A stretch of DNA of 64,000 bases, taken from Candidatus Shapirobacteria bacterium (GTDB taxonomy: Bacteria; Patescibacteriota; Microgenomatia; UBA12405). The notes under the pieces are model-generated. The model was not told the origin of the DNA, did not search any database, and saw only the letters and a program-made list of their open reading frames with translations. Position numbers and translations under genes: made by a program. The DNA lies in NCBI GenBank assembly GCA_041659325.1, contig JBAZYN010000001.1, positions 238,819-302,818 on the forward strand, given 5' to 3'. Positions 1-23,423 of this stretch are shown piece by piece (positions within the stretch are counted from its first letter, which is position 1; the number at the start of each line of letters is the position of its first letter).

Positions 1-1
1 A

Positions 2-595
2 AACCAACTAGAAGCTCTAACATATATTACTACAGGTTGGCACAACCTTTCTAATCTCTTTGAAAGTACAAATTTACCCGAAGACCAAACCAGCAGTGCC
101 ATAAATGGTCTGAAAATTGTCCTAGAGCCATATTTTCCCAAACTAAGAAACCTAAATCGGATCGAATGTTTCGATATCTCCCAAATGGGTACAAATCATT
201 TTGTTGGTGCCATGGCTGTTTTTGAAGACGGAAAGCAAAGATTTGACCAGTATCGTAAATTTAAAATCTATTCCAAAGTTACTCCCGACGACCAGTTTAT
301 GATGAAAGAAATTGTTTTTCGTCGTCTAAAACACCCCGAATGGGGAACCCCCGACCTAATTGTTGTCGACGGAGGCAAACCGCAAGTCTCTTCCTGTCTC
401 ACCCTCACCGATACCCCATTATTTGGAATCGCCAAAAAACTTGAGACGATTACTATCAAGACACCCCAAAGCTGGATTGAAATCAATTTACCAAAAAACT
501 CCAACTCCCTTAAGCTCCTTCAAAACCTACGAAACGAAGCCCATCGATTTGCTAATAGATATCGAAAAGAATTAATGCAAAAATCAATTATATGA
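2..595 (+). CDS. uvrC: Excinuclease ABC subunit C (UvrC), C-terminal part; 5' end lies outside the window
   Basis: The reading frame is open from position 2. Its translation contains 'RIECFDISQMG', 'DLIVVDGGKPQV', 'LFGIAKK' and 'LQNLRNEAHRFANRYRK', which match the UvrC endonuclease-domain motifs IECFDISH, ILIDGGKGQL and IRDEAHRFA. The ORF stops about 10 aa after EAHRFA, so the C-terminal (HhH)2 domain is absent. Confidence 0.8.
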   Translation, partial: NQLEALTYITTGWHNLSNLFESTNLPEDQTSSAINGLKIVLEPYFPKLRNLNRIECFDISQMGTNHFVGAMAVFEDGKQRFDQYRKFKIYSKVTPDDQFMMKEIVFRRLKHPEWGTPDLIVVDGGKPQVSSCLTLTDTPLFGIAKKLETITIKTPQSWIEINLPKNSNSLKLLQNLRNEAHRFANRYRKELMQKSII

Positions 596-1269
596 AAATC
601 TCAGTAATTGTTCCTTGCTACAACGACGGTAAATACATTAATCACGTAATAGACCAATTAAGAAAATCAAAATTTGTCGGTGAAATAATTGTTGTCGACG
701 ATGATTCCGGTCAGGAAACAAAAAATCTTCTGCAAAAAATTAAAGGTATTAATCTGATTACTAATACCCGAAACATCGGTAAATCAAAAACTCTAAAAAA
801 AGGAGTTTTGGCCTCTAAATTCGATTATGTTGCTTTTATTGATAGTGACCTAACTGGTTTTACCTCACGTCACTTTGAAAGCCTCGTTAAACCGGTTCTA
901 GAAAATGTCTGCGACATTACTACCAGTGTCCGCGGAAAAGAAGCCTGGTATGGTATCCTTTCCGGATTTTCCATTGCCTACACCGGTGAAAGAGCAATGA
1001 AAAGAGAATTAATGACGAAAAACATCGATCTCTTTAACAATCATGGTTATATTATCGAGGCAGAATTTAATCGCCGATTTTTGGGTAAGACCCGAATGAA
1101 GGGGATCCTTTGGTCCGAAGTTGGACAACACGGTCAACCTGAAAAAAACGGTCTTCGTGGGTGGTTAGTCAACGGGCGCCAAGTAACTTCTTACCTCAAA
1201 TATCTTGGCCCCTTTGAGATGCTTCGACAACTTGTTCTTGTTAAGCTCCCGTCATACGTTCTAAACTAG
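592..1269 (+). CDS. Family 2 glycosyltransferase (GT-A fold)
   Basis: The N-terminus 'MKISVIVPCYNDGKYI' is followed by 'IIVVDDDSGQET', and the acidic 'FIDSDL' plays the role of the DxD motif. The start overlaps the uvrC stop as ATGA. Confidence 0.7.
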   Translation: MKISVIVPCYNDGKYINHVIDQLRKSKFVGEIIVVDDDSGQETKNLLQKIKGINLITNTRNIGKSKTLKKGVLASKFDYVAFIDSDLTGFTSRHFESLVKPVLENVCDITTSVRGKEAWYGILSGFSIAYTGERAMKRELMTKNIDLFNNHGYIIEAEFNRRFLGKTRMKGILWSEVGQHGQPEKNGLRGWLVNGRQVTSYLKYLGPFEMLRQLVLVKLPSYVLN

Positions 1270-2393
1270 GCCAGTAACTCTTTCATTTTATCCAATCCTG
1301 CTTTAGCGCGGTCTCCTTCAAAATGTTTCCTTGCTGGTTCCAATTTATCAATCAACCAGTCGCTTAAGGCATTTTTTAAATCTAGCGGAAATAGCTTTTC
1401 TCTCTCATAATCAGCAATCAATTCTCCAACGCTAGTATAGATAACATCTCCGCCAAATCTCTCCGGCCGATTTACCCTAAATTCACCGTTCTCCTGTCCC
1501 CAAAAGACCAACGACTCCACCCAATTGATTATCGGATTAAATCTAATTTCTTTTGGCGGGCCATAAGCTTTTTTCACCTTACCCCTAATTTCGTCAGGTG
1601 TATCGTGAATAAATACTGCAGAATTTGGCTTTGACTTACTCATCTTAAGGTCGATAGCCACCTCTTCGGCTTCTTGTTTTAAATCAACTGATTCCGGCCC
1701 GACTAATCCGGCAATTAGATTTTGGTGTAAAGCAATCGGAGCAATTACTTTACCCAACTTATTTTTTAGGGGGTTTATGGTCAATTTTTCTGCAACTTGT
1801 CTGGCTACCACGTGGGCTTTCCTCTGATCCATCCCGGCATGTGCCAAATTTACCCCCATCGTAAATATATCCGCTACCTGTAACGGTGGATAGAAAAGAG
1901 TTGCCATATCGACATCATTTCCCTGTTTTTTACCCATAATCGAAATAGACCTCAAGTTACGTGAAAGCGTTACATGCTTCCCCACCTCCATAAAGGTTTC
2001 CCAATGTTTTAAATTATTCTCGTATAGTTCTTTGCCGCTGATAAACTCAACCTGCCCCTCGTCAACTCCATGGCATTTCAAGGAAGCAATCAACGCCTGT
2101 TTAAAATAATTCTCCGAGGCCCACCGAATATCATCCCATTTCCCACCGAGCTTATTATTTAAAAATGTGTGGAAATCAGCCAAAAATACTTTGCACTTGA
2201 CACCGGCTTTCAAAAAGTCAGCAATTTTCCCCATCGACAAAAAACCGGTTCCCAAGTGGACCATGCCGGATATTTCAAATCCTATGTAATGCGTCAGAGG
2301 AGTATCTGTATCCATTAAACCTTTCAATTCATCAATCACCAGTACTTCCTGGCAGTTTCTTGTTATCAGTTCAATTTTTTCTTGTATATCCAT
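1266..2393 (-). CDS. tyrS: Tyrosyl-tRNA synthetase, archaeal/eukaryotic type (class I)
   Basis: 'GFEISGMVHLGTG' is a HIGH-like motif comparable to archaeal 'GFEPSGKIHLGH'. 'YPPLQVADI...GMDQRKAHVVAR' resembles 'YPIMQVNDI...GMEQRKIHMLAR', and 'KMSKSKP' is the KMSKS motif. The length of 375 aa fits the short archaeal-type TyrRS. Confidence 0.75.
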   Translation of the reverse strand: MDIQEKIELITRNCQEVLVIDELKGLMDTDTPLTHYIGFEISGMVHLGTGFLSMGKIADFLKAGVKCKVFLADFHTFLNNKLGGKWDDIRWASENYFKQALIASLKCHGVDEGQVEFISGKELYENNLKHWETFMEVGKHVTLSRNLRSISIMGKKQGNDVDMATLFYPPLQVADIFTMGVNLAHAGMDQRKAHVVARQVAEKLTINPLKNKLGKVIAPIALHQNLIAGLVGPESVDLKQEAEEVAIDLKMSKSKPNSAVFIHDTPDEIRGKVKKAYGPPKEIRFNPIINWVESLVFWGQENGEFRVNRPERFGGDVIYTSVGELIADYEREKLFPLDLKNALSDWLIDKLEPARKHFEGDRAKAGLDKMKELLA

Positions 2394-2474
2394 GGCTTAT
2401 TATAGTTTGAACTAAACTATTTGTCATTTTTTGATAAGTTCCCGCGCCCAAACTTTTCCAACTCAGCCCAAATA

Positions 2475-3200
2475 TTAATTGACCCTCTGGGCAAACACCA
2501 ACAGTCGCTTCCAGTCCGTCCCTATTGGCCAACAAGTCTGGAGAATCACTACTTCTTTTTCAGGGTCATTATATTTCAAATACTCAACTTCACCGGCAGA
2601 TACTACTTTTTTATCATATACCATATAGATATAAGAATTACCCGAATATCTAATCAAAAATTGATCCTCGTTTGTTAATTCACCCAATAGGTAGAACACG
2701 GCATTTTTCCTAACCATATCAAAGCCTTGCTGCGTTGAGTGAGCGAATATATAAGTCATATTGCCTGCTCCCGAACCCGGTGGGCTAGTATCTTTTGCCT
2801 GAGCCACCACATTGTTTTCCAAAACCCTTAGATACTCTGTTTTATCAAAAGGAGAAACACTCGCAATTACCTGTGATTCAGCCATAATCTTTGGTATTGA
2901 AATCAGATATTCCGAATCAATATACGCCGTAACCCCCACCCCCGGAGTCGGTGAGACGCTATAGGGTGGTGTTTGGTCTACCACCTGCTGAAACCCACGT
3001 GAAGCAAGATAATATCTTCCGGAAGCATATAGTATAGGCCAGTATAAATACACCAAAATTCCTGACGCTATAAAAAACAAAAAGTTACCAAAATAAAAAA
3101 CCATTTTCTTAGGTAATGGAGGATTGCTATAAATTACCCCCTTATTGGACCTAATCAGTACCCTTCGTTTTTTAGGAGTTACCTTAAAAAAATCAATCAT
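2475..3200 (-). CDS. Sortase-family transpeptidase (membrane anchored)
   Basis: There is an N-terminal TM segment. 'IFAHS' supplies a His and 'VILQTCWP' supplies the TLxTC catalytic Cys. A downstream Arg is present. Size and architecture fit class A/E sortases. Confidence 0.55.
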   Translation of the reverse strand: MIDFFKVTPKKRRVLIRSNKGVIYSNPPLPKKMVFYFGNFLFFIASGILVYLYWPILYASGRYYLASRGFQQVVDQTPPYSVSPTPGVGVTAYIDSEYLISIPKIMAESQVIASVSPFDKTEYLRVLENNVVAQAKDTSPPGSGAGNMTYIFAHSTQQGFDMVRKNAVFYLLGELTNEDQFLIRYSGNSYIYMVYDKKVVSAGEVEYLKYNDPEKEVVILQTCWPIGTDWKRLLVFAQRVN

Positions 3201-3351
3201 TAGTCTATTCTATCGATAGTTACTCGATTTGACAAAAGCAGAATGCTCCTTTAATATATCATCCTATGCAGCTGAAAACCGCGCTAAGCATAAATAAAAC
3301 CCGACTTTCTAGCCGGAGCATTGCTCTGTTATCATCTGCAAATTTTATTTG

Positions 3352-3420
3352 CCTCTCCTTTTAACTTAGGGTTTCGAAAATCCGCGAACCCCTAACGACA
3401 TACACAGAGAGGTTTTTTTT
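3352..3420 (+). terminator. Hairpin plus T8 run in the tyrS/sortase-greA intergenic region (terminator-like or 3' end of a small RNA)
   Basis: CCTCTCC (3352-3358) pairs with AGAGAGG (3406-3412). Inside it lies an inner GGGTT/AACCC stem at 3369-3391. T8 at 3413-3420 follows immediately. Confidence 0.3.
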
Positions 3421-3438
3421 GGCGTTTAATTAAAAAAT

Positions 3439-3903
3439 ATGACAAACAAAACACTACTAACCCAATCGGGTTTCAACCAGTTGAGTCAGGAGTTATTAAA
3501 TCTAAAACAAAAAGAGGAACATCTTGTAACCCAAATCGAAGAGGTGGCCCAGCCTGATGAATCAGGTGAAGATGGTTTGGCCACTCAACTTAAAGAAGAG
3601 CTCGAACTTGTATCCGGAAAAATAGAAAATCTCGAAGAAGCTTTGGAAATGTCTCAAATCATAAACGGAAAAACTCCAAAAAATGGCGTCGTTCAAATTG
3701 GCTCAAAGGTAAAAATTAAAATTTCCGGTAAAAAAGAATTAGAATTTAATATTGTCAGCCATCTTGAAGCAGACCCAAATCAAAACAAAATATCCGACCA
3801 ATCACCGCTTGGCCAAGCGTTAATTGGTTGCAAAATTCACGACGAGGTAGAAATTGAAGCCCCGATCGGCAAGCTAACATACAAAATCATCTCCATTAGT
3901 TAA
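3439..3903 (+). CDS. greA: Transcription elongation factor GreA
   Basis: An N-terminal coiled-coil is followed by the C-terminal 'ISDQSPLGQALIGCKIHDEVEIEAPIGKLTYKIISI', which corresponds to the GreA FKBP-like domain motif. Confidence 0.8.
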   Translation: MTNKTLLTQSGFNQLSQELLNLKQKEEHLVTQIEEVAQPDESGEDGLATQLKEELELVSGKIENLEEALEMSQIINGKTPKNGVVQIGSKVKIKISGKKELEFNIVSHLEADPNQNKISDQSPLGQALIGCKIHDEVEIEAPIGKLTYKIISIS

Positions 3904-3921
3904 TCTCGTGTAAAATTAATT

Positions 3922-6102
3922 ATGTCGGATGAAAAGCTAAACGATCTCCAGAAACAGCGCCTGGACAAATTCAAAAAATTACAGGACTCCGGAATCAATC
4001 CCTATCCGCAACCGAACCTCAAAACTAAACAAAGCTGTTCTGAGGTCTTAACAATGTTAGGCTCAAAAGTTACCGTTGCCGGTCGTCTCATGTCGCTTCG
4101 TGGCCACGGCCGTATCCTTTTCGCCGATTTACATGATCGCACCGGAAAAATTCAGCTTTTCTTTCAGGAAAAAATACTCGGCACCGAAAAGATTAAACAA
4201 ACCGAGCTCCTTGACTTAGGTGACATTATTTGTGCCTCAGGGGAGGTTATAAAAACTCAGGCAGGAGAGCTTACCATAAACGTTGACTCATTTGAACTGT
4301 TGGCAAAAAATCTTCGCCCTCTTCCTGAAAAATGGCACGGCCTCAAAGACATCGAAGATCGTTACCGCCAACGGTACGTTGATCTGATTATGAATCCTGA
4401 TATCCAAAAAGTTTTTGAAATCAGAACAAAAATACTCACTGAAATCAGGCACTTTTTAGACAACCGTGGATTTCAGGAAGTAGAAACCCCCGTCCTGCAG
4501 CCGGTTTATGGCGGCGCCTCCGCAAAACCATTTATCACCCACCACAATACTCTGGATATGGATATGTATCTTAGAATTTCTGACGAACTTTATCTAAAAA
4601 GACTGATCGTTGGTGGATTGGAAAAAGTCTATGAAGTCAGCCGCGATTTTAGAAACGAGGGAGTTTCCCGCTTTCACAATCCTGAATTTACCCAAATTGA
4701 GTTTTACTGGGCATATGTTGATTATGAGGTCTTAATGACATTCACAGAAGAATTAATCACCCATGTTATTAAATTAATCAAAGGCAACCTATCTTTTTCT
4801 TTCCAAGGACAAGACTTAGACTTTTCCCCTCCTTTCAAACGGCTTACTTTCAGAGACGCAATTTTTGATAAAACTCAGATAGACATTGACACTATTGACT
4901 CAATTGACCTGTTCAAAAAAATAATCAAAGACAAGAAATTAAAAGTCGATTTAAAAAATGTAATCGGAATTGGCGAGTGTTTTGACGTTTTGTACAAAGA
5001 ACATGTCCGTCCGTATATCATTCAACCAACATACATTACCGACTATCCCGCCGCCATGATTGCCCTTGCCAAAAGAAAAGAAAACGATCCTGAAAAGATC
5101 GCTTCCTTTCAGCTTCTCGCCGCCGGTACCGAGCTTCTAAAGGCCTACAATGAGCTAAATGACCCCAAGGACCAATATAATCGTTGGCTAGAAGAAGAAG
5201 CCCTTACAGAAAAAGGCAGTGAAATTGCCATGCAGATGGACAAAGATTATATTCGCGCCCTGGAATACGGCATGCCCCCCACGGCTGGATGGGGAATGGG
5301 TATAGACCGCTTCTCTCAATTTTTAACCGATCAGCCTACCATCAAAGACGTCATCTTCTTCCCGTCTATGAAAAACGAAGATGGCTCTCTCTCTAAGATT
5401 AATAACAAAGTATCTCCTGAATCTCATCCTCAATATCTTATCGACAAAAAACTACTCGAAGCCTATCCCTCCATTAAAACCGGCATCGCCATTATTGAAG
5501 GAGTTAGTGTTCAAAAAAGCAACGTCGAGTTGGATAAATTAAAGGAGATCACAGCTAAGAAATACAAAAACTATTCTTTAGATGACATTGATAAAATTTC
5601 ATCCATTCAAGCCTACAGAAAATTCTTCAGATCATTTGGAGTTGATCCGGCTTCTCGCCATCCATCGCCCGACGCTCTCCTTCGTCGCCTAATTTCAAAA
5701 AAAGGATTATATAATATCAACACCCTGGTTGATGCTTATAACGTCGCTAGTCTTGAAACTAACTTAGGCATGAGTGCTATGGACATGGCCCACCTTAATT
5801 TCCCCGTCACCCTTCGTTTCTCCCAGTCTGGTGAAAAGATTGTTCTCCTTGGAGGCGAAGAAACCAAAACCACTAAAACCGGAGAAGTTGTTTATGCCGA
5901 TAATCAGGGTTTAATCACTCTGGACCTAAATTATCGTGACTGCGACAAAACTAAAATAACTTCACAAACCAAAAATGTTCTACTTTACGTTGACGGTTGC
6001 CCGGGGATTTCTAGCCAAGAAATTGCTAACGCTCTGGAACGGGAAATTGAACTAATTCAAAAATTTTGCGGAGGGATAGTTACATTTAAAGAAATTATCT
6101 AG
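3922..6102 (+). CDS. lysS: Lysyl-tRNA synthetase (class II) fused to a C-terminal B3/4-type tRNA-binding domain
   Basis: The first ~490 aa carry class II LysRS motifs ('FRNEGVSRFHNPEFTQIEFYWAY', 'GMPPTAGWGMGIDRF'). The C-terminal ~230 aa ('YRKFFRSFGVDPASRHPSPDALLRRL...NTLVDAYNVASLETNLGMSAMD') resemble the B3/4 domain of PheT and of standalone B3/4 proteins. Confidence 0.8.
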   Translation: MSDEKLNDLQKQRLDKFKKLQDSGINPYPQPNLKTKQSCSEVLTMLGSKVTVAGRLMSLRGHGRILFADLHDRTGKIQLFFQEKILGTEKIKQTELLDLGDIICASGEVIKTQAGELTINVDSFELLAKNLRPLPEKWHGLKDIEDRYRQRYVDLIMNPDIQKVFEIRTKILTEIRHFLDNRGFQEVETPVLQPVYGGASAKPFITHHNTLDMDMYLRISDELYLKRLIVGGLEKVYEVSRDFRNEGVSRFHNPEFTQIEFYWAYVDYEVLMTFTEELITHVIKLIKGNLSFSFQGQDLDFSPPFKRLTFRDAIFDKTQIDIDTIDSIDLFKKIIKDKKLKVDLKNVIGIGECFDVLYKEHVRPYIIQPTYITDYPAAMIALAKRKENDPEKIASFQLLAAGTELLKAYNELNDPKDQYNRWLEEEALTEKGSEIAMQMDKDYIRALEYGMPPTAGWGMGIDRFSQFLTDQPTIKDVIFFPSMKNEDGSLSKINNKVSPESHPQYLIDKKLLEAYPSIKTGIAIIEGVSVQKSNVELDKLKEITAKKYKNYSLDDIDKISSIQAYRKFFRSFGVDPASRHPSPDALLRRLISKKGLYNINTLVDAYNVASLETNLGMSAMDMAHLNFPVTLRFSQSGEKIVLLGGEETKTTKTGEVVYADNQGLITLDLNYRDCDKTKITSQTKNVLLYVDGCPGISSQEIANALEREIELIQKFCGGIVTFKEII

Positions 6103-6114
6103 TTTCTGTAATTC

Positions 6115-6459
6115 ATGTCTATCCAAAAAATTGATCACACTTTTTCAGAGTCAGATTTATCAGAACTAACCACCTTTTTCCCTGATTATGTCAAATTAGT
6201 CGCAGATATTGATAAAAACATCCTCTATGGTGGATCCGAGTTTCACGCTGATATAGAAAAAATTTTGCTAGATCAAGGATCTATCCAGGCTTCTCTTTGG
6301 GGAGGGGGAGTCCACACTAAAACTAAAAAAATCGACTGTTTAGCAATTATCAATATTCGACCGGGAATTAATCCTGATCCTAATATCTTAGATTCAAAAA
6401 TACGGGATAAGTTTCTCAAAATTGTTAAGCTTTATTTTCCTGACTATAATTATGGATAG
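6115..6459 (+). CDS. Hypothetical protein
   Basis: A 114-aa ORF with compact spacing after lysS. I recognise no family. Confidence 0.4.
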   Translation: MSIQKIDHTFSESDLSELTTFFPDYVKLVADIDKNILYGGSEFHADIEKILLDQGSIQASLWGGGVHTKTKKIDCLAIINIRPGINPDPNILDSKIRDKFLKIVKLYFPDYNYG

Positions 6460-6721
6460 AGACAAAATTGAGTTATTTAATGTTTGTTCTGACCTCCGTC
6501 GGGCAATTATTGATTTAACCAGTAACCCAACCCAATCACCGGAGAACAACCATTTCATCCAAAACATCACCAATAACTTCCCTCGCTTGATAAAAATTGA
6601 CCCAAATATTAGCCATTATATAAAGCCATCCCAATTAAAAAACGACCATCTTCCCAATCGTCTTTTTGCAGAAAATTTATTAATGGCTAGCCTTCGCTTA
6701 CAACGTTATCTAGGTTATTAA
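6452..6721 (+). CDS. Hypothetical small protein (the ORF track starts it at 6422; an internal ATG at 6452 overlapping the upstream stop as ATGGATAG is more plausible)
   Basis: The ORF 'MDRDKIELFNVCSDLRRAIIDL...' shows no recognisable motifs. Confidence 0.3.
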   Translation: MDRDKIELFNVCSDLRRAIIDLTSNPTQSPENNHFIQNITNNFPRLIKIDPNISHYIKPSQLKNDHLPNRLFAENLLMASLRLQRYLGY

Positions 6722-6722
6722 T

Positions 6723-7322
6723 ATGCCTAATAGTCGCAAACCCTATTACGAAGCCGTCAAATCAATTCTTGAAACAAACATCTTCTACCATTCTTTAGCT
6801 CTTGAAGCCTGCATGGGTGGAATCTACGACTATCTCTCTTCTCAAAACCGGCTCAATCCGTTCGAACCGCCTAAAGACGATTGGCTTTTGGCCGGATTAA
6901 TTCACGATATTGACTATACACCTGAAATGAAAGACACCCATCCATCAAAAACCAATGAGGCTCTCTCAAAAAACGGTCTTTCGGTCTCTGACAACATCCT
7001 CCAGATAGTAAAAGCTCATGGGTGGCACTACCCCGGCGGAGTAGAACCCGAATCTTTTGCTCAATGGGCAATCTATTGTGCCGACAGTTTAACCGGTCTT
7101 ATTATTGCCGTTGCTCTGGTTTACCCCTCAAGAAAACTTTCAGACGTCAAAACGTCTTCCGTCCTAAAACGTTTTCTGAAAGAACCTAAGTTCGCAGCCG
7201 GCACCAGAAGAGAAGAAGTCAAATTATGTGAATTAGAAACTGGCTTAAACATTCCCCTGGAAAAATTTATCGAGATCTGTTTAACCTCAATGCAAAAGAT
7301 TGCCTCAGATATCGGTCTTTAG
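6723..7322 (+). CDS. HD-domain phosphohydrolase (YfbR/5'-nucleotidase-like)
   Basis: The pattern is H...H, then 'LLAGLIHDIDY' (the HD motif), then later 'KAHGWH' and 'CADSL' (a downstream Asp). Confidence 0.55.
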   Translation: MPNSRKPYYEAVKSILETNIFYHSLALEACMGGIYDYLSSQNRLNPFEPPKDDWLLAGLIHDIDYTPEMKDTHPSKTNEALSKNGLSVSDNILQIVKAHGWHYPGGVEPESFAQWAIYCADSLTGLIIAVALVYPSRKLSDVKTSSVLKRFLKEPKFAAGTRREEVKLCELETGLNIPLEKFIEICLTSMQKIASDIGL

Positions 7323-7409
7323 ATTAAATGATATACTCTGATATATTTATTAACTGCGATGATTCTACGGGTATTTATACAAAATTTTCTGTTAAAATAA
7401 TCCTATCAA

Positions 7410-8672
7410 ATGATCGATATTAATTTAGTCCGCCTAAGCCCTGAAATTGTAAGAAAAAACCTCATCCGGCGGCAAAAAGACCCAAAACTTCTTGATGATG
7501 TCGTTGCCATTGATGTCCAATACCGAAAAGTACTTCAGGAAGTTGAAGAATTAAGGGCAAAACAAAATTCCATCAACCGTGAAATCAAGGGGAAACCAAC
7601 CGATGAGCAACTAAAATCAGCAACTACCATTAAAGACCAATTAAAAGGTCTTGAAACCGCCCTCACAGGCTTCGAAAACCAGCTAAATAATGTTTTAGAA
7701 CTTTTACCAAACATGATAGCTAGCGATGTCCCCGACGGCAAAGACGACCAGGACAATGTGGTATTCAAAGAAATCGGAACTATCCCAAAATTTGATTTTA
7801 AACCCCTTGATCACGTAGATTTGGGAGAAAAACTAGACATTATCGATATTCCCCGCGCCTCAAAGATATCCGGCTCGCGATTTGGATATTTCAAAGGAAA
7901 GGGTGCGGTTTTAGAAATGGCAGTTATGTTTTACGCTTTCAGAAAATTAATCGATAAGGGTTTTACCGGCATGATCCCCCCGACCATGGTAAAAAGTTCT
8001 ACCGAATGGAAATGCGGCTATACCAGCAATCAAAATTTATTCAACGCTAGTTATTCCATTCCCGAAGACGACTTAATCTTTATCTCAAGCTCTGAGCACT
8101 CAGTTGTCCCATACCACATGGACGAAATCCTGGATGCAAATAAACTGCCGATTAAATACGTTAATTTCTCTCCCTGTTTCCGCCGTGAATCAGGTACCTA
8201 TGGCAAAGATACCCGGGGGCTTTTCCGGGTTCATTTTTTCAACAAAGTTGAAATGAATATCTTCACTTTACCCGACTACAAAATTTCAGATGCCATGTGC
8301 GAAGAAATGCTTGCCATCGAAGAAGAAATTATGCAGGAGCTAGGAATTGCCTATCGCGTCATGAAGTGTTGCGCCGGTGATTTACCTCAACCCAACCGAA
8401 GGATGTACGACATCAATTCGTGGTTTCCCGGCCAAAACGCTTTCAGAGAAACCCAATCATGCAGTAACTGCGGGGATTATCAGGCCCGTCGCCTAAACAC
8501 CAAAACAAAAATCAACAATAAAAATGAGTTGGTGCATATCCTCAACGCAACCGTGATCACAGACCGAGCCGTATTGGCCATTATCGAAAATTTTCAGCAG
8601 AAAGACAACAGTATCCTTATCCCAAAAGTCCTACAACCATTTACAAATTTTAACATTATTAAACCCAATTAA
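7410..8672 (+). CDS. serS: Seryl-tRNA synthetase
   Basis: An N-terminal coiled-coil arm is present. Class II motif 2 is 'FRRESGTYGKDTRGLFRVHFFNKVEM', and motif 3 is 'ETQSCSNCGDYQARRL'. Confidence 0.85.
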   Translation: MIDINLVRLSPEIVRKNLIRRQKDPKLLDDVVAIDVQYRKVLQEVEELRAKQNSINREIKGKPTDEQLKSATTIKDQLKGLETALTGFENQLNNVLELLPNMIASDVPDGKDDQDNVVFKEIGTIPKFDFKPLDHVDLGEKLDIIDIPRASKISGSRFGYFKGKGAVLEMAVMFYAFRKLIDKGFTGMIPPTMVKSSTEWKCGYTSNQNLFNASYSIPEDDLIFISSSEHSVVPYHMDEILDANKLPIKYVNFSPCFRRESGTYGKDTRGLFRVHFFNKVEMNIFTLPDYKISDAMCEEMLAIEEEIMQELGIAYRVMKCCAGDLPQPNRRMYDINSWFPGQNAFRETQSCSNCGDYQARRLNTKTKINNKNELVHILNATVITDRAVLAIIENFQQKDNSILIPKVLQPFTNFNIIKPN

Positions 8673-8694
8673 TTTAGCTTAGAGGAGCCACCCT

Positions 8695-8742
8695 CCCCGT
8701 TTTCCGTCTGTCATAAGCCGGAAAATCGGGGTTGGTTTTTTT
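8695..8742 (+). terminator. Rho-independent terminator after serS
   Basis: The stem CCCCGTTTTCCG (8695-8706) pairs with CGGAAAATCGGGG (8719-8731) around a 12-nt loop. TTGGTTTTTTT follows. Confidence 0.55.
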
Positions 8743-8749
8743 ATAAACT

Positions 8750-11422
8750 ATGCTATCTATTTTCAAAAATCTGTTTGACGATAATCGTCGCCGGGTCAAA
8801 TCATTCGAATCGATAATTTCAGAAATCAATAAGCTAGAGCCCATCATTTCCCAACTCTCAGATAAGGAATTGTCTGAAAAAACCACTTTTTTCAAAGATC
8901 AAATCAATAAAGGCAAAAAGCTAGATGAAATATTACCGGAAGCCTACGCGGTTGTTCGCGAATCAATAAAAAGAACCATCGGAGAAAGGGCATATGATGT
9001 TCAATTATTAGCCGCTATCACCCTCCATCAGGGAGCTATTGCCGAACAAAAAACAGGTGAAGGTAAAACTCACTCCGTTATCTTTCCCGCCTACCTTAAT
9101 GCCCTCACCGGAAAAGGCGTACATATAATTACTCCAAACGATTATTTAACCCGTGTCGGCGCCGGATGGTACCCCAAAGCCCTCCATTTACTGGGTATTA
9201 AAACGGCCTGTATCATCCACGAACAATCATACATTCTGGATCCCTCGTACAAAGATACTACCGAGACTTTTGATGACCGTCTCGCGCATTTAAGACCGAT
9301 CAGCCGACAGGAAGCCTATGCTGCCGATATTACTTATGGGACCAACAATGAATTCGGTTTCGACTATCTCCGTGATCATATGGTCAGTGATCAAAAAGAT
9401 GCCGTTCAGAGTAATCACAACTTTGCCATTGTTGACGAGGTCGACTTCGTTTTAATTGATGAAGCCCGTACCCCTCTAATTATATCTTCCCCAAACAATC
9501 AACCGACCGACAAATACAATAAATTTGCCAAAATAGCCGCTGATTTACAACCGACCGACTATGTAATCGACGAAAAATCAAGGTCAGCCACCCTATCAGA
9601 ATACGGAATTAGAAAAGTTGAAAGAGTAATAGGCGTCACCAACCTCTATGAGGAATCCTTTGAAACCATTCATTACATCGAAAACGCTATCAAAGCGCGG
9701 GCTTTGTTTCACAAAGACAAGGATTATGTCATAAAAGACGGCGAGATAATAATTGTCGACGAGTTCACGGGTAGGTTAATGTATGGTCGCCGATGGTCCG
9801 ATGGTCTTCATCAGGCGGTTGAGGCCAAAGAAGGCGTCACCATACAACGTGAATCACAAACTTGGGCCACCATCACTTTTCAAAACTATTTTCGTCTATA
9901 CGCTAAATTAGCCGGGATGACCGGAACTGCCAATACTGAGGCTGAAGAATTTAAAAAAATATATAACCTTGATGTTGTTTGTATTCCAACCCATCGGCCC
10001 TTAAACCGTACCGATGACCAAGATTTAATTTTCAAAACCCAAAGATCAAAATATGTTGCTATCGGTAACTTAATCGAAGAGCTACACAAAAAGGGCCAAC
10101 CGGTCTTGGTCGGTACCACCTCAATCGAAAAAAATGGAATTATTGATTCGCTCCTGACCAAAAAAGGCATCCCTCACCAACTACTAAACGCCAAAAATCA
10201 CCGCTCCGAGGCAGAAATAATTGCCAAAGCCGGTATAAAAGGTGCTGTCACAGTCGCCACTAACATGGCTGGTAGGGGAGTCGATATCATTTTGGGCGGA
10301 CCAAAAGAAAGTCAGGACCCCAACTCCTGGCAAAAAAATCATGACGAAGTTGTTTCACTTGGCGGGCTATACGTCATTGGCACAGAGAGACATGAGTCGC
10401 GCCGGATCGATAATCAGCTCCGCGGTAGAGCCGGGCGTCAGGGTGATCCTGGTTTTTCCCAATTCCATGTTGCCCTGGATGATGATCTCATGAGAATTTT
10501 TGGTGGAGAAAAAATTAGCAGTATTATGACCCGCTTTAATATGCCCGAAGACACACCACTAACCCATCCCATAGTTTCAAAAGTCATCGAACAAATTCAG
10601 GTAAAAGTGGAAGGTTATAATTTTGATGTCCGCAAAAGCCTGGTTGAATACGACGATGTAATCAACAAACAAAGAAAAATAATTTACGGCCTTCGGGACA
10701 ATACTTTGAAAAGAAGTTACGATAATCCCAATGCAAACAAGGACGAAGTTTTTAAATATCTTACAAATGAAATAAGCCAAATTACTTCAAACCACATGGA
10801 ACCTGAGACCGGAACCTATGATACCGAAAAAATTGTCCTTGAATTCTCCGAAATCCTCCCTATGGACGAAAGGGGTAGGGGCAAAGTAAAAGAACAACTT
10901 GCGAAAACCGATAATTCACAAGATTTTCTCCTTAAACTTCTTGACCATAATTGGAAGGAAAGAGTCAAGTTTTTTGGTGAAAATATCACTAGCTCAATTC
11001 TTACCTATTCAGTTATCTCTACCCTCGATCCGTTATGGGTAGAACATCTAACTGCCCTGGATGAATTGAGAGACGGAGTAAGGCTTCGGGGTTACGCCCA
11101 AAAAGATCCTCTTATTGAATATCGCAAAGAAGGTTATGAAATGTTCCAAAAATTAATGCGCCAGTTTGAATATAATTTAGCTCGAAAAATTTTCCGTCTG
11201 GAGCCTGTCTCCACCAACAATCCTACCGCCCCGCAAAACGCCACCGAACGCCGGGGAGAAGATATCAAAATGTCATCGCCCGTAGTCCAAAACGACTTGC
11301 CACTCACCCAAATGGGAGTCCAAACCGTACCCGTTTCTCCGGCAGGTCCCGGAAGAAACGATCCCTGTCCCTGTGGTAGTGGTAAAAAATACAAAAAATG
11401 CTGTTATCCAAAATTTGGCTAA
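8750..11422 (+). CDS. secA: Preprotein translocase ATPase SecA
   Basis: 'EQKTGEGKTHSVIFPAYLNALTGKGVHIITPNDYL' is the Walker A/DEAD-like motor region. The protein is 890 aa. The C-terminus carries a 'CPCGSGKKYKKCC' zinc-binding tail. Confidence 0.9.
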   Translation: MLSIFKNLFDDNRRRVKSFESIISEINKLEPIISQLSDKELSEKTTFFKDQINKGKKLDEILPEAYAVVRESIKRTIGERAYDVQLLAAITLHQGAIAEQKTGEGKTHSVIFPAYLNALTGKGVHIITPNDYLTRVGAGWYPKALHLLGIKTACIIHEQSYILDPSYKDTTETFDDRLAHLRPISRQEAYAADITYGTNNEFGFDYLRDHMVSDQKDAVQSNHNFAIVDEVDFVLIDEARTPLIISSPNNQPTDKYNKFAKIAADLQPTDYVIDEKSRSATLSEYGIRKVERVIGVTNLYEESFETIHYIENAIKARALFHKDKDYVIKDGEIIIVDEFTGRLMYGRRWSDGLHQAVEAKEGVTIQRESQTWATITFQNYFRLYAKLAGMTGTANTEAEEFKKIYNLDVVCIPTHRPLNRTDDQDLIFKTQRSKYVAIGNLIEELHKKGQPVLVGTTSIEKNGIIDSLLTKKGIPHQLLNAKNHRSEAEIIAKAGIKGAVTVATNMAGRGVDIILGGPKESQDPNSWQKNHDEVVSLGGLYVIGTERHESRRIDNQLRGRAGRQGDPGFSQFHVALDDDLMRIFGGEKISSIMTRFNMPEDTPLTHPIVSKVIEQIQVKVEGYNFDVRKSLVEYDDVINKQRKIIYGLRDNTLKRSYDNPNANKDEVFKYLTNEISQITSNHMEPETGTYDTEKIVLEFSEILPMDERGRGKVKEQLAKTDNSQDFLLKLLDHNWKERVKFFGENITSSILTYSVISTLDPLWVEHLTALDELRDGVRLRGYAQKDPLIEYRKEGYEMFQKLMRQFEYNLARKIFRLEPVSTNNPTAPQNATERRGEDIKMSSPVVQNDLPLTQMGVQTVPVSPAGPGRNDPCPCGSGKKYKKCCYPKFG

Positions 11423-12000
11423 TTTTAAAATTCATACTCATTACTTTCGTTATTTTAACCTCTCCCTGGTTTATACCACAACCACTTACAAACAAAATAT
11501 TTCTGCTTCTTACCACCTTATCGCTTTTTTTCTTTTTCAATTTCAAAACGTCAACACAAAAAATTATATTTCTCATCTGCTTTTTCGTTCTAGTTTATAT
11601 CCAAGTATCATCAACAGATATTGCAAATACATACAATTTTACCGACCATCAAAAATACATATACCAAAACCGGCTTAACCAATATCCCCCCTCTTTAGCC
11701 AGATTGGGTAACATTTTAGAAAATCGGCTTGACTCCCCAATAATCTATCGCTTACGCCAAAATTTCTTTGACAGTCTTGATCTTGTTAATTATTTTAAAA
11801 ACCTCTTTCTACCAACTTTATTCATCCCCTTTGTAATCGGTTTTAATAAATTTCTTAAACGCCCAAACAAGTTTATCGCTACTACAGCCGTCATTTCTAT
11901 CCTCCTACTGACAATAACTGGCCCCAATGGCTCCTACGGACCGCTTCTCATGTTTCCCTTCATTACTATAATAATTTCTCGCTACTCTCTTGAAAAATAA
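11398..12000 (+). CDS. Hypothetical small polytopic membrane protein
   Basis: A hydrophobic 200-aa ORF. It overlaps the secA 3' end by 25 nt in another frame, and it may be real or may have a later start. No family recognised. Confidence 0.3.
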   Translation: MLLSKIWLILKFILITFVILTSPWFIPQPLTNKIFLLLTTLSLFFFFNFKTSTQKIIFLICFFVLVYIQVSSTDIANTYNFTDHQKYIYQNRLNQYPPSLARLGNILENRLDSPIIYRLRQNFFDSLDLVNYFKNLFLPTLFIPFVIGFNKFLKRPNKFIATTAVISILLLTITGPNGSYGPLLMFPFITIIISRYSLEK

Positions 12001-13459
12001 ATTATTTTTATCAGCAATTCTCTTGTTCAGTTTCTTTCTGTATTCATATAAACTCAGCCAAATCCCTTCCGTCTATGTCGACGAGGCTGTAACCGGCTAC
12101 AATGCCTACTCAATACTAAAAACAGGAAAGGATGAAAATGGGAAATTATTCCCTATATATTTTCGTTTTTTCAACGCCTATTCTCCCGGTCTCTACACCT
12201 ATTCTATAGTTCCGCTTATAAAACTTTTTGGCCTCAACCCATTTTCTGTCCGCTTACTTTCAGTATTTTCCGGAGTTGTCTCGGTTTATATCTTTTACCG
12301 TTTAGTATTTATATTTTTAAAATCGGAAAAAAAATCATTAATAACCACCTCCTTTTATGCCATTCTCCCCTGGACTATCTTTAACAGTCGTCTCGGGTAC
12401 GAGGTTATGTATGCCGCCGCCATCTTTAACACCGGTGCTTATCTTGTATTTAAACTCCTACCAAATATTTCAAATCTCGGTCTTCTCCTAATCAGCCTAT
12501 CTACCTATGCTTCCCACAACCAGCGATACTTAGCACCTTTATTCATCATCGGCTATTTCATAATTATCAAGACCCCCAAAATAAAAACCCTGCTTATGCT
12601 TCTAATTTCTCAAATCCCGAATCTAATCTTGATGTTTACTCCTGCTTTCTGGGTAAAAAACAGTATCTTTTCCCTGAAATATATACTTTTACAAATTATC
12701 ACCTATATTTCGCCCAAGACCCTTTTTTTCGAACTACCCGATATTGATTTACAACACCAGATTCCCAAAATCTCCCTCCTTTATTGGTGGATGATAATCC
12801 CCTTAGTAACCGGTCTGAAAAAATTGACGCCCAGAACTCTAAAAGAACATCGCCTGCTAATTTTTTGGGCAATTATTTCTCTGGTTCCGGCTTCATTGAG
12901 CGGAGAATTTATATCCATCCAAAGGGCACTGCCTTTTCTTTTCCCCATCAGCCTAATCATCTCTTTGGGCCTTTCCCAAATTAATAGAACACTTCTACTA
13001 ATAGCATTCCCATATTCATTAGCCCTATTTCTTCGGTCATATTTTATATTTCTCCCAAAAGAGTTGGCCTTATCCTGGAATGAGGGATATCGTCAGCTTT
13101 CAGAATTTTCTCTTTCACATGGCCATGAAACAATTCTCGTCGACAATAGCCGCAACATCCGAAACTATATCCTACCGCTTTTTTATCAGAAATATGACCC
13201 AACTCTATATCAGCAATCGCTGGGAAAGAGTATTTCCTCACGTTATTACCAGGTACCACCTCAACTAAGCACCTACCATTATGGCAGTTTAACTTTTGCT
13301 CCAATAGATTGGAGCCAAATAGAAAATTATGACTATATTGTTTCCGATAGTTTATCTGTTTCGTCTGATCAGGCCCGAGAGCACAATCTTGTACTTTTTG
13401 AAACTATACTGACTCAAAACCACCAAATCTCCCAAGAAATATACAAGGTGGTAAAATAA
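11990..13459 (+). CDS. PMT/ArnT-superfamily (GT39/GT83-like) GT-C membrane glycosyltransferase, paralog 1
   Basis: An N-terminal TM is followed by the loop motif 'VDEAVTGYNAYSILKTGKDENGKLFP'. The protein has more than 10 predicted TM segments and a C-terminal soluble domain. Six further paralogs lie later in the window. Confidence 0.6.
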   Translation: MKNKLFLSAILLFSFFLYSYKLSQIPSVYVDEAVTGYNAYSILKTGKDENGKLFPIYFRFFNAYSPGLYTYSIVPLIKLFGLNPFSVRLLSVFSGVVSVYIFYRLVFIFLKSEKKSLITTSFYAILPWTIFNSRLGYEVMYAAAIFNTGAYLVFKLLPNISNLGLLLISLSTYASHNQRYLAPLFIIGYFIIIKTPKIKTLLMLLISQIPNLILMFTPAFWVKNSIFSLKYILLQIITYISPKTLFFELPDIDLQHQIPKISLLYWWMIIPLVTGLKKLTPRTLKEHRLLIFWAIISLVPASLSGEFISIQRALPFLFPISLIISLGLSQINRTLLLIAFPYSLALFLRSYFIFLPKELALSWNEGYRQLSEFSLSHGHETILVDNSRNIRNYILPLFYQKYDPTLYQQSLGKSISSRYYQVPPQLSTYHYGSLTFAPIDWSQIENYDYIVSDSLSVSSDQAREHNLVLFETILTQNHQISQEIYKVVK

Positions 13460-13465
13460 CAACCA

Positions 13466-14476
13466 GTGATTGATTACAAAAAGCCGTCATCAGAGATTCT
13501 AAGGGCAATAAAAAAGTCCAAACAAATTCTTCTTCATCTCCATCGTGGCCCCGACGGGGATAGTGTCGGAAGTGCCTTAGCCATGATGCACTACCTTACC
13601 TCCATTGGCAAAAAAGTTACCTTAATTAGCGGCGATTCTGACCCTCCGACCTATCTTTCTTCTCTCCCTGGTTTTAAAAAAATTAAAAACCAAAGTTTTC
13701 AGAAAACAAACCTAAAAAAATATGATTTATTTATCATCTTAGATTCCGGTGATCTAAACCAAATATCCAGTATTAGTGAAATTATTTTTCCAAAAAGTTT
13801 AAACACTGTCACTATTGACCACCACCATGCCAATCCCGGATATGCCAACATCAATCTTGTCGATAAAGACGCCCCTGCTACCTGCCAAATTATCTATAAA
13901 TTGTTCAAACTTTGGAAATTTGATATCACTCCGGAAATCGCTGTTTGTTTATATATCGGAATTTATCAGGACACCATGTTTAAATATCCAGGTACTTCAT
14001 ACATTACTTTTGAGATATGTGCCCACCTTACAAAACTCTATCCTGATTTCACCAAAATAGTTTTTGATATGGAAAACAGTAATCACCCTTCAAGGTTAAA
14101 GTTGCAGGGCATCGCCCTTAACTCGATCGAAACATATCTTGACGACCACCTTGCAATAAGTTCTATCTCCAATCAGGATATCGTGAACAATTCATTTACC
14201 ACCACCAACATTAGCGGAAACGAGATGGCCAATATTCTAAGATCTGTAACCGGTTGGACAATCTCTGCCCACATTATTGAATATCAACCAAACCATTGCA
14301 AGATCAGTCTCCGAACCAGAAATTCAGACAAATATGACGTCAGTAAAATCGCTATGGCAGTTGGAGTCGGAGGTGGACACAAAGCCTCTTCAGGGTCTAC
14401 TGTTGATCTTCCTCTCCCTGAAACCAAAAAACTCCTAGTTGATACTGTCAAAAAAATTTATCCTCGGCTTAAATAA
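13466..14476 (+). CDS. nrnA: DHH/DHHA1 phosphoesterase (NrnA-like oligoribonuclease / pAp phosphatase)
   Basis: 'GPDGDSVGS' is followed by 'LDSGD', the DHH motif in 'IDHHHAN', and the C-terminal DHHA1 'GGGHKASSG'. Confidence 0.75.
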   Translation: MIDYKKPSSEILRAIKKSKQILLHLHRGPDGDSVGSALAMMHYLTSIGKKVTLISGDSDPPTYLSSLPGFKKIKNQSFQKTNLKKYDLFIILDSGDLNQISSISEIIFPKSLNTVTIDHHHANPGYANINLVDKDAPATCQIIYKLFKLWKFDITPEIAVCLYIGIYQDTMFKYPGTSYITFEICAHLTKLYPDFTKIVFDMENSNHPSRLKLQGIALNSIETYLDDHLAISSISNQDIVNNSFTTTNISGNEMANILRSVTGWTISAHIIEYQPNHCKISLRTRNSDKYDVSKIAMAVGVGGGHKASSGSTVDLPLPETKKLLVDTVKKIYPRLK

Positions 14477-14479
14477 CCG

Positions 14480-16321
14480 TTACCGGCCATGCCTTTCCGC
14501 TCTCACCCGATCAACTTTTGTTAAGTATCGTTTTCTTAATCTGATATTTTTGGGTGTGACGTCTATCAGCTCATCACTATTGATAAAATCCAAGCTTTCT
14601 TCAATACTGTATTTGACCGCCGGTGCTAAAATGATTGCCTCATCGTTTCCCGAAGACCTCATATTTGTTAGTTGTTTTCCCTTGCACACATTAATCTCTA
14701 AGTCTCCCACCACAGGGCGGACCCCACAAACTTGCCCTTCATATACCGGTTCAGTCGGACCTACAAAGGTAACTCCTCTTTTCTGCGCTAGGTCAAGTCC
14801 AAAAGACAATGCTTTACCGCCTTCAGAAGCAATCATTGCCCCATTTCTCGACCGAGGGATTTCTTCACCCTTGACCTCGTAACCCAAAAATATCGTATTA
14901 ATAGAAGCCAACCCTTTTGTTTCCGTCATCAAAGCACTTCTCAAACCCAAACCATTTTTTTCACTTATCTTATAAACCATTTTTAGGTTACCTTTTTGAT
15001 CCGTAACCATATCAAGCATTTTGGCTTTTCTTTTACCAAGTTCTGCCGTAATCACACCCACATAGTCCTCAGGTGTCAAAATAGTCAGTTCGTTATATGG
15101 TTCACTCGTTTTACCGTCAATAGTCTTATAAATCACCTCGGGTTTACCCACCTCCATTGCGTATCCCTCACGGCGCAATTTTTCAATCAATATTGCCAGG
15201 TGCAATTCTCCTCTTCCGGAAACCAACACCCTGATACTGTCATCCGGGTCATCTTCGATTTTTAGTCCCAAATTGGTCTCAACCTCTTCGCGCAACCTGG
15301 CTTTCAATTCTCGGCTGGTTAGATATTTCGATTCATCTCTGGCAAAAACAGATGTATTGGGGCCAAAACTGGCTTTAATGGTCGGTTCGGTTACCACAAT
15401 TTCCGGCAAAGCAACCTGAAAATTAGGACTGGTTATGGTTTGCCCAATTTCAAGTTCATTAATCCCGGCCAGATATATAACTTCACCACTACCGGCCAAA
15501 TCATTTTCAACTTTTACGATACCTTCGTTGACATACATCCGCTCAACCTTATAATTTCCCAAAACTTTCTGATCCGGTTTAACCAAGGAGACGTAACTAC
15601 CTTTTTTTATTATCCCCTGATTAATCCTCCCCACCGCCAATCTCCCCAAATACTCATTTCTCTCAAACGCCGAAACCAACATCTGAAATGGCTTATCGGA
15701 ATTCCTGACCGCAGACGGAAAATACTCAATAATTGTTTCAAATAACGGTCCGACATCGCCGGGTTGGTCAAAACTATCCGGTATCTCTTTCCAGGTTTTC
15801 CCGTCTCTTCCGACAGCATAAATAATCGGAAAGTCCAAAAGATCCAAATCAGCTGCCAGCGATAAAAATAAATTTTCGGTATCAGCCACCACTTCTTTCA
15901 CCCTGGCGTCTTTTCTGTCAATCTTATTTATCACCAATATTACTTTCAACCCATAGTCCAAAGCTCTTTTCAAAACAAATTTGGTCTGCGACAGGGGACC
16001 CTCAGCCGCGTCAACAATTAAAAGCACTCCATCTGCCATATTAAGAACCCGTTCAACCTCGCCCCCAAAGTCGGCATGTCCCGGAGTATCGATTATGTTG
16101 ATTTTTATATCTTTATAGAAAACAGAGGTATTCTTTGACAAAATTGTAATTCCCTTCTCCCTCTCCAAATCATTGCTATCCATAATCCTGTCTATATTCA
16201 TTTCCTCCTGATTATCACGAAAAGTATGGGTTTGTTTCAACATCGCATCCACCAGAGTTGTCTTACCATGATCGACATGGGCAATAACGGCAACATTTCT
16301 GATATCACTAAATTTTGGCAT
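14480..16321 (-). CDS. typA: Translational GTPase TypA/BipA
   Basis: '[17 protein letters not shown]' is the G1 motif and '[14 protein letters not shown]' is the G3 motif. The 613-aa length and domain order are typical for BipA. Confidence 0.9.
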
Positions 16322-16379
16322 TCGTACATTATACCCCCAAAAACATGTTTTTACTCATATTAGGGGTTAAAATATACCA

Positions 16380-17138: not shown

Positions 17139-17142
17139 CCCC

Positions 17143-18128: not shown

Positions 18129-18131
18129 ACT

Positions 18132-18545
18132 GTGGTAAAAAATACCCGGGTAAAAAAATATCATTTTTCCTTCCAAACTGTCATTAGACTCACTATCTTT
18201 TTATTGTTTATATATTTTATAATCACCCAAATTTCCAAGCAAAAACTTCCTGTCGACATGACTTTTAATTCAACCATTCTCGGCGAAAAAACGTCATCAC
18301 CATCAGCTCAATTATTTCTGAAAAACACTTTCGACATCGTCTACGATAAACTTCCTCCAAAAAGTCAGGAGACCATTAATAATCTCGATAATAACCCCCT
18401 AATCACTACTATTCAGGAAAAACTTGATTATGTAAAAAAAGAATCACTAAATTTTCCCCAAAAACAAATAAATGAGATCAAAAAATCCATAATAAATTCC
18501 ATTTATAAAAACATAATGGAAAGCATTAATACCGAAAAACAATGA
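18132..18545 (+). CDS. Hypothetical membrane-anchored protein
   Basis: A single N-terminal TM is present. The remainder is lysine/asparagine-rich. No family recognised. Confidence 0.35.
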
Positions 18546-19615: not shown

Positions 19616-19617
19616 AC

Positions 19618-23415: not shown

Positions 23416-23423
23416 GTTCGTCT

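Follow-up and report, generated by a model that had tools for sequence, protein, structure and literature searches.

Introduction

Lysyl-tRNA synthetase (LysRS) is the textbook case of an aminoacyl-tRNA synthetase that loads many wrong amino acids onto its tRNA although it lacks a domain for post-transfer editing. To our knowledge, no other synthetase comes in two structurally unrelated classes. Here we describe a class II LysRS gene, found in a Candidatus Shapirobacteria bacterium (Patescibacteria, or candidate phyla radiation), whose reading frame continues beyond the synthetase into a B3/4 domain resembling the aminoacyl-tRNA deacylase CtdA. The gene lies on contig JBAZYN010000001.1 of assembly GCA_041659325.1, within a stretch of 64,000 nucleotides (forward strand, positions 238,819 to 302,818) that was analysed as a whole and is called the window below. 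The added domain, which we refer to as the module, is probably a proofreading domain for LysRS that has not been described before.

The known remedies for mischarging of tRNALys by LysRS are of other kinds. Homocysteine, homoserine and ornithine are disposed of by pre-transfer cyclisation in the LysRS active site (PMC4173786, PMC7373986), and LysRS errors are cleared in trans by ProXp-ST1/2 and MurM (PMC7373986). These address the same problem as the putative function of the module, but they include no B3/B4 domain and no fusion to LysRS, which has been described as lacking post-transfer editing (PMC4173786, PMC7373986).

The closest described B3/B4 domains are those of CtdA and of the beta subunit of phenylalanyl-tRNA synthetase (PheT), which have a common core and differ in their type-specific inserts (PMC12449066, PMC12268091). 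CtdA, a canavanyl-tRNAArg deacylase, is free-standing and acts in trans on tRNAArg (PMC10018355, PMC12449066). Its mutagenesis points to Y104 and N105, which lie close to the ester, and to E118 and E191 of the pocket floor, with E191 being required; activity and specificity are tuned through Q173 and the strictly conserved C166, the latter affecting discrimination between canavanine and arginine (PMC12268091, PMC12449066). A 2025 paper in Nucleic Acids Research also noted an uncharacterised 'CtdA-2' clade, found in Chloroflexi, Bacillota and archaea, in which another residue takes the place of C166 (PMC12449066); the LysRS-associated modules described below may overlap with this clade.

The same evolutionary pattern, in which an editing fold exists as a free-standing protein, in a neighbouring gene and fused to the synthetase that it proofreads, is exemplified by ProRS INS/YbaK/ProXp, the AlaRS editing domain and AlaX, and ThrRS N2/ThrRS-ed. 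These involve other folds and other synthetases, and differ from the present case in that here one clade of modules would serve two unrelated synthetases of one amino acid. Full-text literature searches returned no published link of a B3/B4 or CtdA-like domain to LysRS, and the CtdA papers mention neither fusions nor LysRS in their main text. The domain family and its chemistry are already known; the LysRS partner, the recruitment by both LysRS classes and the distinct pocket are new.

Results

A complete CtdA-like module follows an intact class II LysRS

The fused gene is a single uninterrupted frame encoding 726 amino acids, and its product is identical to a protein deposited as 'lysine--tRNA ligase [Candidatus Shapirobacteria bacterium]' (P0025). 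Residues 1-487 constitute a class II LysRS: the NCBIfam model lysS_bact (TIGR00499) matches residues 6-486 with 549.7 bits (equivalog cut-off 427.6), Pfam recognises both the OB-fold anticodon-binding domain and the class II catalytic core, of the Asp/Lys/Asn type (Table 1), and motif 2 (FRNEG...HNPEFT) and motif 3 (GMGIDRF) can be read intact in the latter. A first-pass annotation, made from the DNA letters alone, had placed the end of the canonical LysRS near residue 490 and had assigned the remainder (5392..6102, corresponding to residues 491-726 and the stop codon) to a PheT-type B3/4 domain, in a fusion that it regarded as non-standard. The boundary agrees with the TIGR00499 match, both peptide strings quoted in support of the domain are present in the extension, and the architecture is indeed a non-standard one.

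The B3/4 assignment itself was borne out by the Pfam scan that the annotation had proposed: B3_4 (PF03483) matches residues 564-717 over the full length of the profile (positions 1-174 of 174), with an E-value of 3.4e-25 and 89.1 bits against a gathering score of 29.3. An AlphaFold2 (AF2) model of residues 491-726, computed from a 31-sequence alignment, has a pLDDT of 93.6 and a pTM of 0.89, and only residues 491-500 are disordered (pLDDT below 50). The fold starts somewhat ahead of the Pfam match, near Y505, where the first strand of the model lies, and the free-standing homolog P0004 begins at exactly the equivalent position. Together these two observations divide the extension into a linker (residues 488-504) and an entire CtdA-like protein (residues 505-726), whose ~222 amino acids equal the size of a complete free-standing B3/4 protein. 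The linker of ~17 residues is conserved in length across the fusions, and the reading frame through it is kept.

The PheT-type label, by contrast, had to be replaced. The top PDB sequence match of the extension is CtdA (9f7e, E 3.6e-10), ahead of every PheT, and Foldseek aligns the model with the CtdA structures 9mkl and 9f7e at TM scores of 0.82-0.85 (E 2e-18, 226 columns), compared with ~0.6 for PheT B3/B4 domains. The model has the B3/B4 fold together with the CtdA-specific insert, as expected of a CtdA-family protein of ~230 amino acids. The PheT model TIGR00472 (pheT_bact) gives the fused protein 33 bits, in a local match, against a cut-off of 402.65, and a Pfam search of the 726-residue open reading frame (ORF) for PheT domains found none. 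The extension is a complete CtdA-like B3/4 deacylase module and is not of the PheT type.

Likeness to CtdA extends over the whole fold, including the CtdA-specific helical insert, the length (~220-230 amino acids) and the Tyr-Asn pair; the pocket floor, Glu in CtdA, has an acidic residue here too, but with a shorter side chain (D691). Differences lie in the low sequence identity (~18-19%), in clade, in the pocket (see below) and in the related synthetase, which for CtdA is ArgRS; moreover, CtdA is free-standing and trans-acting, whereas the module of the window is part of LysRS, a free-standing version next to lysS being found in the loci L003 and L008. With PheT the module has in common PF03483, the core fold and the Asn of the T/Y-N motif, and PheT H-A-F-D resembles S-A-M-D of the module; the PheT editing domain is also, as would be the case here, appended in cis to a class II synthetase. 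Unlike it, the module lacks the helices with which PheT packs against B1/B2, B5 and the alpha subunit, and it is terminal on a flexible linker instead of embedded. As for the residues with which PheT recognises Tyr, the position of His265 is taken by S618, and no equivalent of Glu334 was identified by sequence alignment.

The module is joined to both LysRS classes and to ArgRS

A search with the full-length protein found nine other LysRS-B3/4 fusions at 49-71% identity, and a phmmer search with the LysRS tail and extension against 1.84 billion representative proteins gave 987 matches at E<=1e-10. Partners were classified with Pfam, seed searches and curated NCBIfam models, and all score above the equivalog cut-offs. 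Twenty-five proteins have the module at the C-terminus of a class II LysRS, and 21 at that of a class I LysRS (lysS_arch). N-terminal modules occur on class II LysRS in four proteins (one of them named Candidatus Babeliales), on class I LysRS in one, and on arginyl-tRNA synthetase (ArgRS) in seven (P0289, P0211, P0221, P0235, P0257, P0267 and P0193). Of the ArgRS fusions, P0289 comes from a Shapirobacteria metagenome-assembled genome (MAG), and P0193 (1124 amino acids) carries two tandem modules. The first-pass annotation was correct as to the LysRS fusion, but it missed the same module on class I LysRS, at either end of class II LysRS and on ArgRS.

Genomes were also scanned, at one per GTDB species, with a motif based on N-Y-R-D, the signature of the LysRS-associated clade described below. 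Among the best 80 of the 133 related loci obtained, the module shares a stop-to-stop frame with class I LysRS in 58 and with class II LysRS in 19, is adjacent to lysS in one, and stands alone or as a fragment in two. The in-frame fusions represent 77 species-representative genomes, including the complete chromosomes CP066689.1 and CP129477.1, and the frame is likewise continuous in more than 40 further metagenomic proteins. Hosts are bacterial (Roizman-, Levy-, Gottesman-, Woese-, Dojka- and Shapirobacteria, Saccharibacteria, Anaerolineae, Limnocylindrales, Methylomirabilota) and archaeal (Woesearchaeota/Nanoarchaeota), and single candidate phyla contain both LysRS classes as partners.

Split arrangements, for which the first-pass annotation had suggested looking in related genomes, do exist, in two loci of Woesearchaeota type. 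In L003 a 501-residue lysS ends with TAA and is followed after 2 nucleotides, in another frame, by a 214-residue B3/4 gene with its own ATG, whose product is 47% identical to the module of the window and behind which lies an HD-domain gene; the woesearchaeotal locus L008 has the same two-gene arrangement of lysS and B3/4. Some short, seemingly free-standing homologs, such as P0001 (L001), are instead fragments of fusions cut at contig ends. In L005 (1408-3999) the module is 73-75% identical to those of Shapirobacteria and the LysRS core just 38-40%. Such discordant histories would be explained by transfer of the module from one lysS gene to another, or else by replacement of the core.

Further domains occur at the same terminus. 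Many Shapirobacteria LysRS end in a tRNA_bind domain (PF01588, Trbp111/EMAPII-like), among them forms of ~613 amino acids in the set P0043-P0140. Three of the nine fusions found with the full-length protein carry tRNA_bind as well, with B3/4 preceding it in P0026 and following it in P0027 and P0028, so that, with L005, the two domains are found together in both orders. The C-terminus of LysRS is a hot spot of domain accretion in the Shapirobacteria lineage. One protein of 906 residues (P0151) has the order LysRS-B3/4-DUF2000; its tail (residues ~774-906) weakly matches PDB 2gax (E 0.097), and the DUF2000 fold is, we presume, classed with peptidyl-tRNA hydrolase 2, in which case the protein would carry another putative hydrolase of tRNA esters besides B3/4.

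Fused LysRS are also encoded by some two dozen TPA_asm MAGs whose records bear the titles 'uncultured Gammaproteobacteria', 'Pseudomonadales' or 'Methanosarcinales' (L007, L012, L013, L017, L021, L022, L028 and others; L034 and L035). These have 33-44% GC, and their LysRS are 60-88% identical to fusions from Roizman-, Levy- or Woesebacteria or Woesearchaeota; the titles of the records are probably wrong.

A neighbour-joining tree of the module mixes the fusions of the two LysRS classes within a single clade, from which CtdA, the ArgRS fusions and the N-terminal fusions are separate. When distances were capped, 55 of 60 bootstrap neighbour-joining trees had at least 90% of the C-terminal LysRS modules on one side of a split free of ArgRS and CtdA modules.

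The pocket differs with the partner synthetase

The catalytic Tyr-Asn pair of CtdA is present in the module as Y606-N607. The V-G-G-E118-N loop with its essential Glu118 is not, having become M617-S-A-M620-D621; elsewhere in the pocket C166 is replaced by T666, Q173 by D673 and, with reversal of charge, R168 by D668, while the change from E191 to D691 is conservative.

These substitutions recur among 45 modules fused C-terminally to LysRS, the set to which the following counts refer. The catalytic Asn is conserved in 44 and the Tyr in 35. At position 118, 42 have Phe, Tyr or Met, compared with Glu in nine of the ten members of a group made up of ArgRS-fused and CtdA modules, and at position 168 Asp is found in 37, as against Arg in eight of those ten. 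An Asp occupies position 173 in 41 modules; at position 191, 36 have Asp and nine have Glu, and position 166 may be Thr, Asn or Cys. When 207 alignment columns were ranked, in an unbiased manner, by divergence between the groups, position 168 came 5th, position 118 came 7th and position 173 came 21st. R672 and D673, the last two residues of the N-Y-R-D signature, are invariant in 20 diverse LysRS-associated modules sharing 31-73% identity, and D660 and D621 are almost invariant.

The composition of the pocket follows the partner, with ArgRS fusions keeping Glu118 and Glu191 and LysRS fusions differing systematically. The ArgRS-fused modules (e.g. P0289, P0193) belong to the same module family as that of the window, are likewise attached to the synthetase of a basic amino acid and occur partly in the same phyla; they differ in being N-terminal, in their CtdA-like pocket (Glu118, Glu173, Glu191), in clade and in sequence (~30% identity). 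The ArgRS fusion looks like canavanyl-type editing fused in cis, an architecture that is apparently also undescribed.

The fused gene occupies the housekeeping lysS locus

The features of the locus are collected in Table 1. Gene order follows a conserved housekeeping arrangement, TyrRS-sortase-GreA-LysS-HD-SerRS-SecA, and the closest relative of the LysRS, the unfused 488-residue P0029 of locus L085 (85% identical), has the same synteny. By blastn, window positions 3406-5382 are collinear with L085 4486-6461 (76.8% identity) and 6742-7500 with L085 6489-7246. Shared synteny and collinear DNA show that the fused gene occupies the housekeeping lysS locus. Between the two collinear blocks the window has 1,359 bp where L085 has 27 bp, and this segment holds the linker, the module, a DUF5674 gene and an overlapping 99-residue ORF. 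From the comparison, the module and the two small genes would have been either inserted in the lineage of the window or deleted in that of L085; in other loci neither small gene is consistently linked to the module. A search of the 64-kb window for a second B3/4 copy, ArgRS or PheT found none.

Table 1. Coordinates, within the window, of the fused gene, its parts and other features
Feature	Coordinates	Strand	Basis
Tyrosine--tRNA ligase (TyrRS)	1266..2393	-	NCBIfam NF006330, 366 bits
Sortase-like gene, adjoining TyrRS	2475..3200	-	
greA, directly upstream of lysS	3439..3903	+	
Class II LysRS, linker and CtdA-like B3/4 module (726 aa)	3922..6102	+	ORF, Pfam, NCBIfam
OB-fold anticodon-binding domain (tRNA_anti-codon), residues 50-127	4069..4302	+	Pfam PF01336, E 5.7e-17
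Class II catalytic core (tRNA-synt_2), residues 145-483	4354..5370	+	Pfam PF00152, E 4.8e-84
Linker, residues 488-504, GSLSKINNKVSPESHPQ, predicted disordered	5383..5433	+	AF2 pLDDT, end of L085 collinearity
Segment of 1,359 bp absent from L085	5383..6741	+	blastn collinearity
CtdA-like B3/B4 aminoacyl-tRNA deacylase module, residues 505-726	5434..6099	+	Pfam B3_4, AF2, Foldseek
Y606-N607, counterpart of CtdA catalytic Y104-N105 (T-N in bacterial PheT)	5737..5742	+	Alignment
M617-S-A-M620-D621, counterpart of CtdA pocket loop V115-G-G-E118-N119	5770..5784	+	Alignment
Pocket strand T666-L-D668-L-N-Y-R672-D673	5917..5940	+	Alignment
D691, counterpart of CtdA E191, acidic residue at pocket bottom	5992..5994	+	Alignment
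DUF5674 gene (114 aa)	6115..6459	+	Pfam PF18924, E 2.6e-20
ORF of 99 aa overlapping the DUF5674 gene, no family match	6422..6721	+	
HD-superfamily protein (199 aa), downstream of lysS	6723..7322	+	
Array of consecutive ORFs of 530-594 aa	45399..62563	both	

The HD-superfamily gene downstream recurs after class I fusions, class II fusions and unfused lysS alike (L001 1379-1942, L003 4642-5226, L085 6470-7069), and in some proteins it is itself fused in frame, as LysRS-HD (P0104), LysRS-B3/4-HD (P0159, L006, L034) or LysRS-tRNA_bind-B3/4-HD (P0150). Between Shapiro- and Roizmanbacteria its product is ~70% identical. Neither NCBIfam nor the PDB sequences yield a match to it, the Pfam HD family falls below threshold, and Foldseek gives weak matches only (PgpH, TM 0.51; YqeK, TM 0.47), so that an identification as a YqeK-like hydrolase of diadenosine tetraphosphate (Ap4A) is not supported. 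That the protein is linked to side-products of LysRS such as Ap4A is only a guess.

Elsewhere in the window, the TyrRS gene adjoins the sortase-like gene, and a RelA/SpoT-family gene that lies between the two in L085 (2095-3531) is absent. ARAGORN found no tRNA or tmRNA genes over 1..64000. The array at the far end of the window comprises at least nine consecutive ORFs, of which several match GT-C-type membrane glycosyltransferases (PMT_2, PMT, GT87, PTPS_related) and the others no family; it is a large paralogous expansion of ArnT/PMT-like enzymes.

Discussion

Class I and class II LysRS have no common fold, and the factors common to both are lysine and tRNALys only. A module that is found on either terminus of either LysRS class, or in the next gene, and whose pocket is both conserved and distinct, is best explained as a deacylase acting on the products of lysylation. 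We therefore favour, at somewhat better than even confidence, the reading that the module is a tethered post-transfer editing domain that would clear mischarged tRNALys, and an editing role, which the first-pass annotation had offered as one possibility, is the best-supported reading of the data. From the comparisons above we infer that the module is hydrolytically active, that it acts on tRNALys and that it does so in cis.

In outline, LysRS would esterify a wrong amino acid onto tRNALys, and the 3' CCA end would then swing, or be handed, into the pocket of the module, which is tethered by the flexible ~17-residue linker. There the Tyr606-Asn607 pair would position the attacking water and the ester would be hydrolysed, whereas correct Lys-tRNALys would be rejected by the pocket.

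The identity of the substrate is a matter for speculation. The acidic residues D668, D673 and D691, together with replacement of the deep Glu118 by bulky Phe, Tyr or Met, suggest a cationic one: either a near-cognate side chain (Arg, ornithine or a diaminobutyrate-like one) or an analogue of lysine, for instance thialysine or oxalysine. The side chain is perhaps shorter than that of lysine, or different from it, and lysine itself is possibly excluded by size.

Among the alternatives, the one that survives best, although we consider it unlikely, is that the module is a non-catalytic appendage which raises affinity for tRNALys or assists its handover, in the manner of the Trbp111/EMAPII-type tRNA_bind domain, with hydrolysis lost or unused. 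Sister Shapirobacteria LysRS do carry tRNA_bind at the same terminus (the ~613-residue forms), the catalytic Tyr is variable in class I fusions, and B3/4-like folds exist as binders of RNA or of the ribosome, LRRC47 being one of the Foldseek matches. Set against this are the near-universal Asn and the residues that hold constant among highly diverged modules (R672 and D673, and nearly so D660 and D621), as well as a pocket whose make-up changes with the amino acid of the partner, something for which a general RNA-binding domain would have no use. The presence of tRNA_bind and B3/4 in the same proteins also argues against a purely RNA-binding role, and makes simple tRNA capture, the other function that the first-pass annotation had proposed, less likely.

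A lower probability attaches to the module being a CtdA orthologue that merely rides on LysRS and deacylates canavanyl-tRNAArg, or another non-Lys tRNA, in trans, so that fusion would amount to co-expression only. Both sequence and fold make CtdA the nearest relative that has been characterised, and free-standing CtdA does act in trans on tRNAArg. The canavanine pocket, however, is replaced in the module (E118 by Met, C166 by Thr, VGGEN by MSAMD) and is kept in the ArgRS-fused modules, including the one from a Shapirobacteria MAG, while fusion to two unrelated LysRS classes and the adjacent split form point to lysine and tRNALys.

We regard as similarly improbable a role in some other chemistry, such as hydrolysis of a non-tRNA ester or of an adenylate, sensing of an amino acid to regulate LysRS, or participation in a LysRS-HD unit acting on nucleotides such as Ap4A. 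The persistent HD gene downstream, sometimes fused, suggests a larger functional unit, but the HD linkage also occurs without B3/4 (L085, P0104) and so is apparently independent of the module, and every characterised active B3/B4 domain (PheT, CtdA) is an aminoacyl-tRNA deacylase. Finally, an artefact of assembly or gene calling, in which a frameshift or lost stop merged two genes in one MAG, is effectively refuted, even though the source is a MAG and a true two-gene version exists in other lineages, by the single frame that runs through the gene here and in 77 species representatives assembled independently of one another, two of them with complete chromosomes.

The editing reading has to be held against several observations. 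No B3/4 gene is present in the L085 locus; the closest relative thus lacks the module, which must be accessory, and since most Shapirobacteria LysRS are unfused it is dispensable over short evolutionary time. The fused gene need not be the sole LysRS of its genome. The catalytic Tyr is retained in just 12 of 20 class I-fused modules, and pocket positions were matched by aligning partial CtdA sequences, not by structural superposition. The trees are neighbour-joining only; strict monophyly of a 58-member clade was recovered in just 2 of 48 replicates, in a run whose distance correction was invalid at high divergence. The two small cationic candidates that come to mind first, ornithine and diaminobutyrate, are said to leave tRNA by self-cyclisation, so that editing them would be of little benefit. 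The biochemically characterised members of the CtdA family are, moreover, CtdA-1 proteins only (PMC12449066).

A broader proposal, which we hold at slightly less than even confidence, is that the LysRS-associated clade represents the first dedicated post-transfer editing for lysine, recruited independently by both LysRS classes, with a sister clade recruited by ArgRS. It would protect the lysine codons of small-genome members of the candidate phyla radiation (CPR), DPANN archaea and Chloroflexi from a cationic non-cognate amino acid, possibly a natural antimetabolite, and it may act with the HD protein as a lysS-B3/4-HD unit.

If editing by the module is confirmed, the two LysRS classes would constitute a natural experiment in which the need for editing is set by the amino acid and tRNA, and not by the scaffold of the synthetase. 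A small and portable module of this kind could also serve genetic-code engineering. For the CtdA family, it would add a second specificity beyond canavanine on tRNAArg, and for the organisms that carry it, it would point to a look-alike of lysine or arginine that is relevant in the habitats of CPR bacteria and DPANN archaea.

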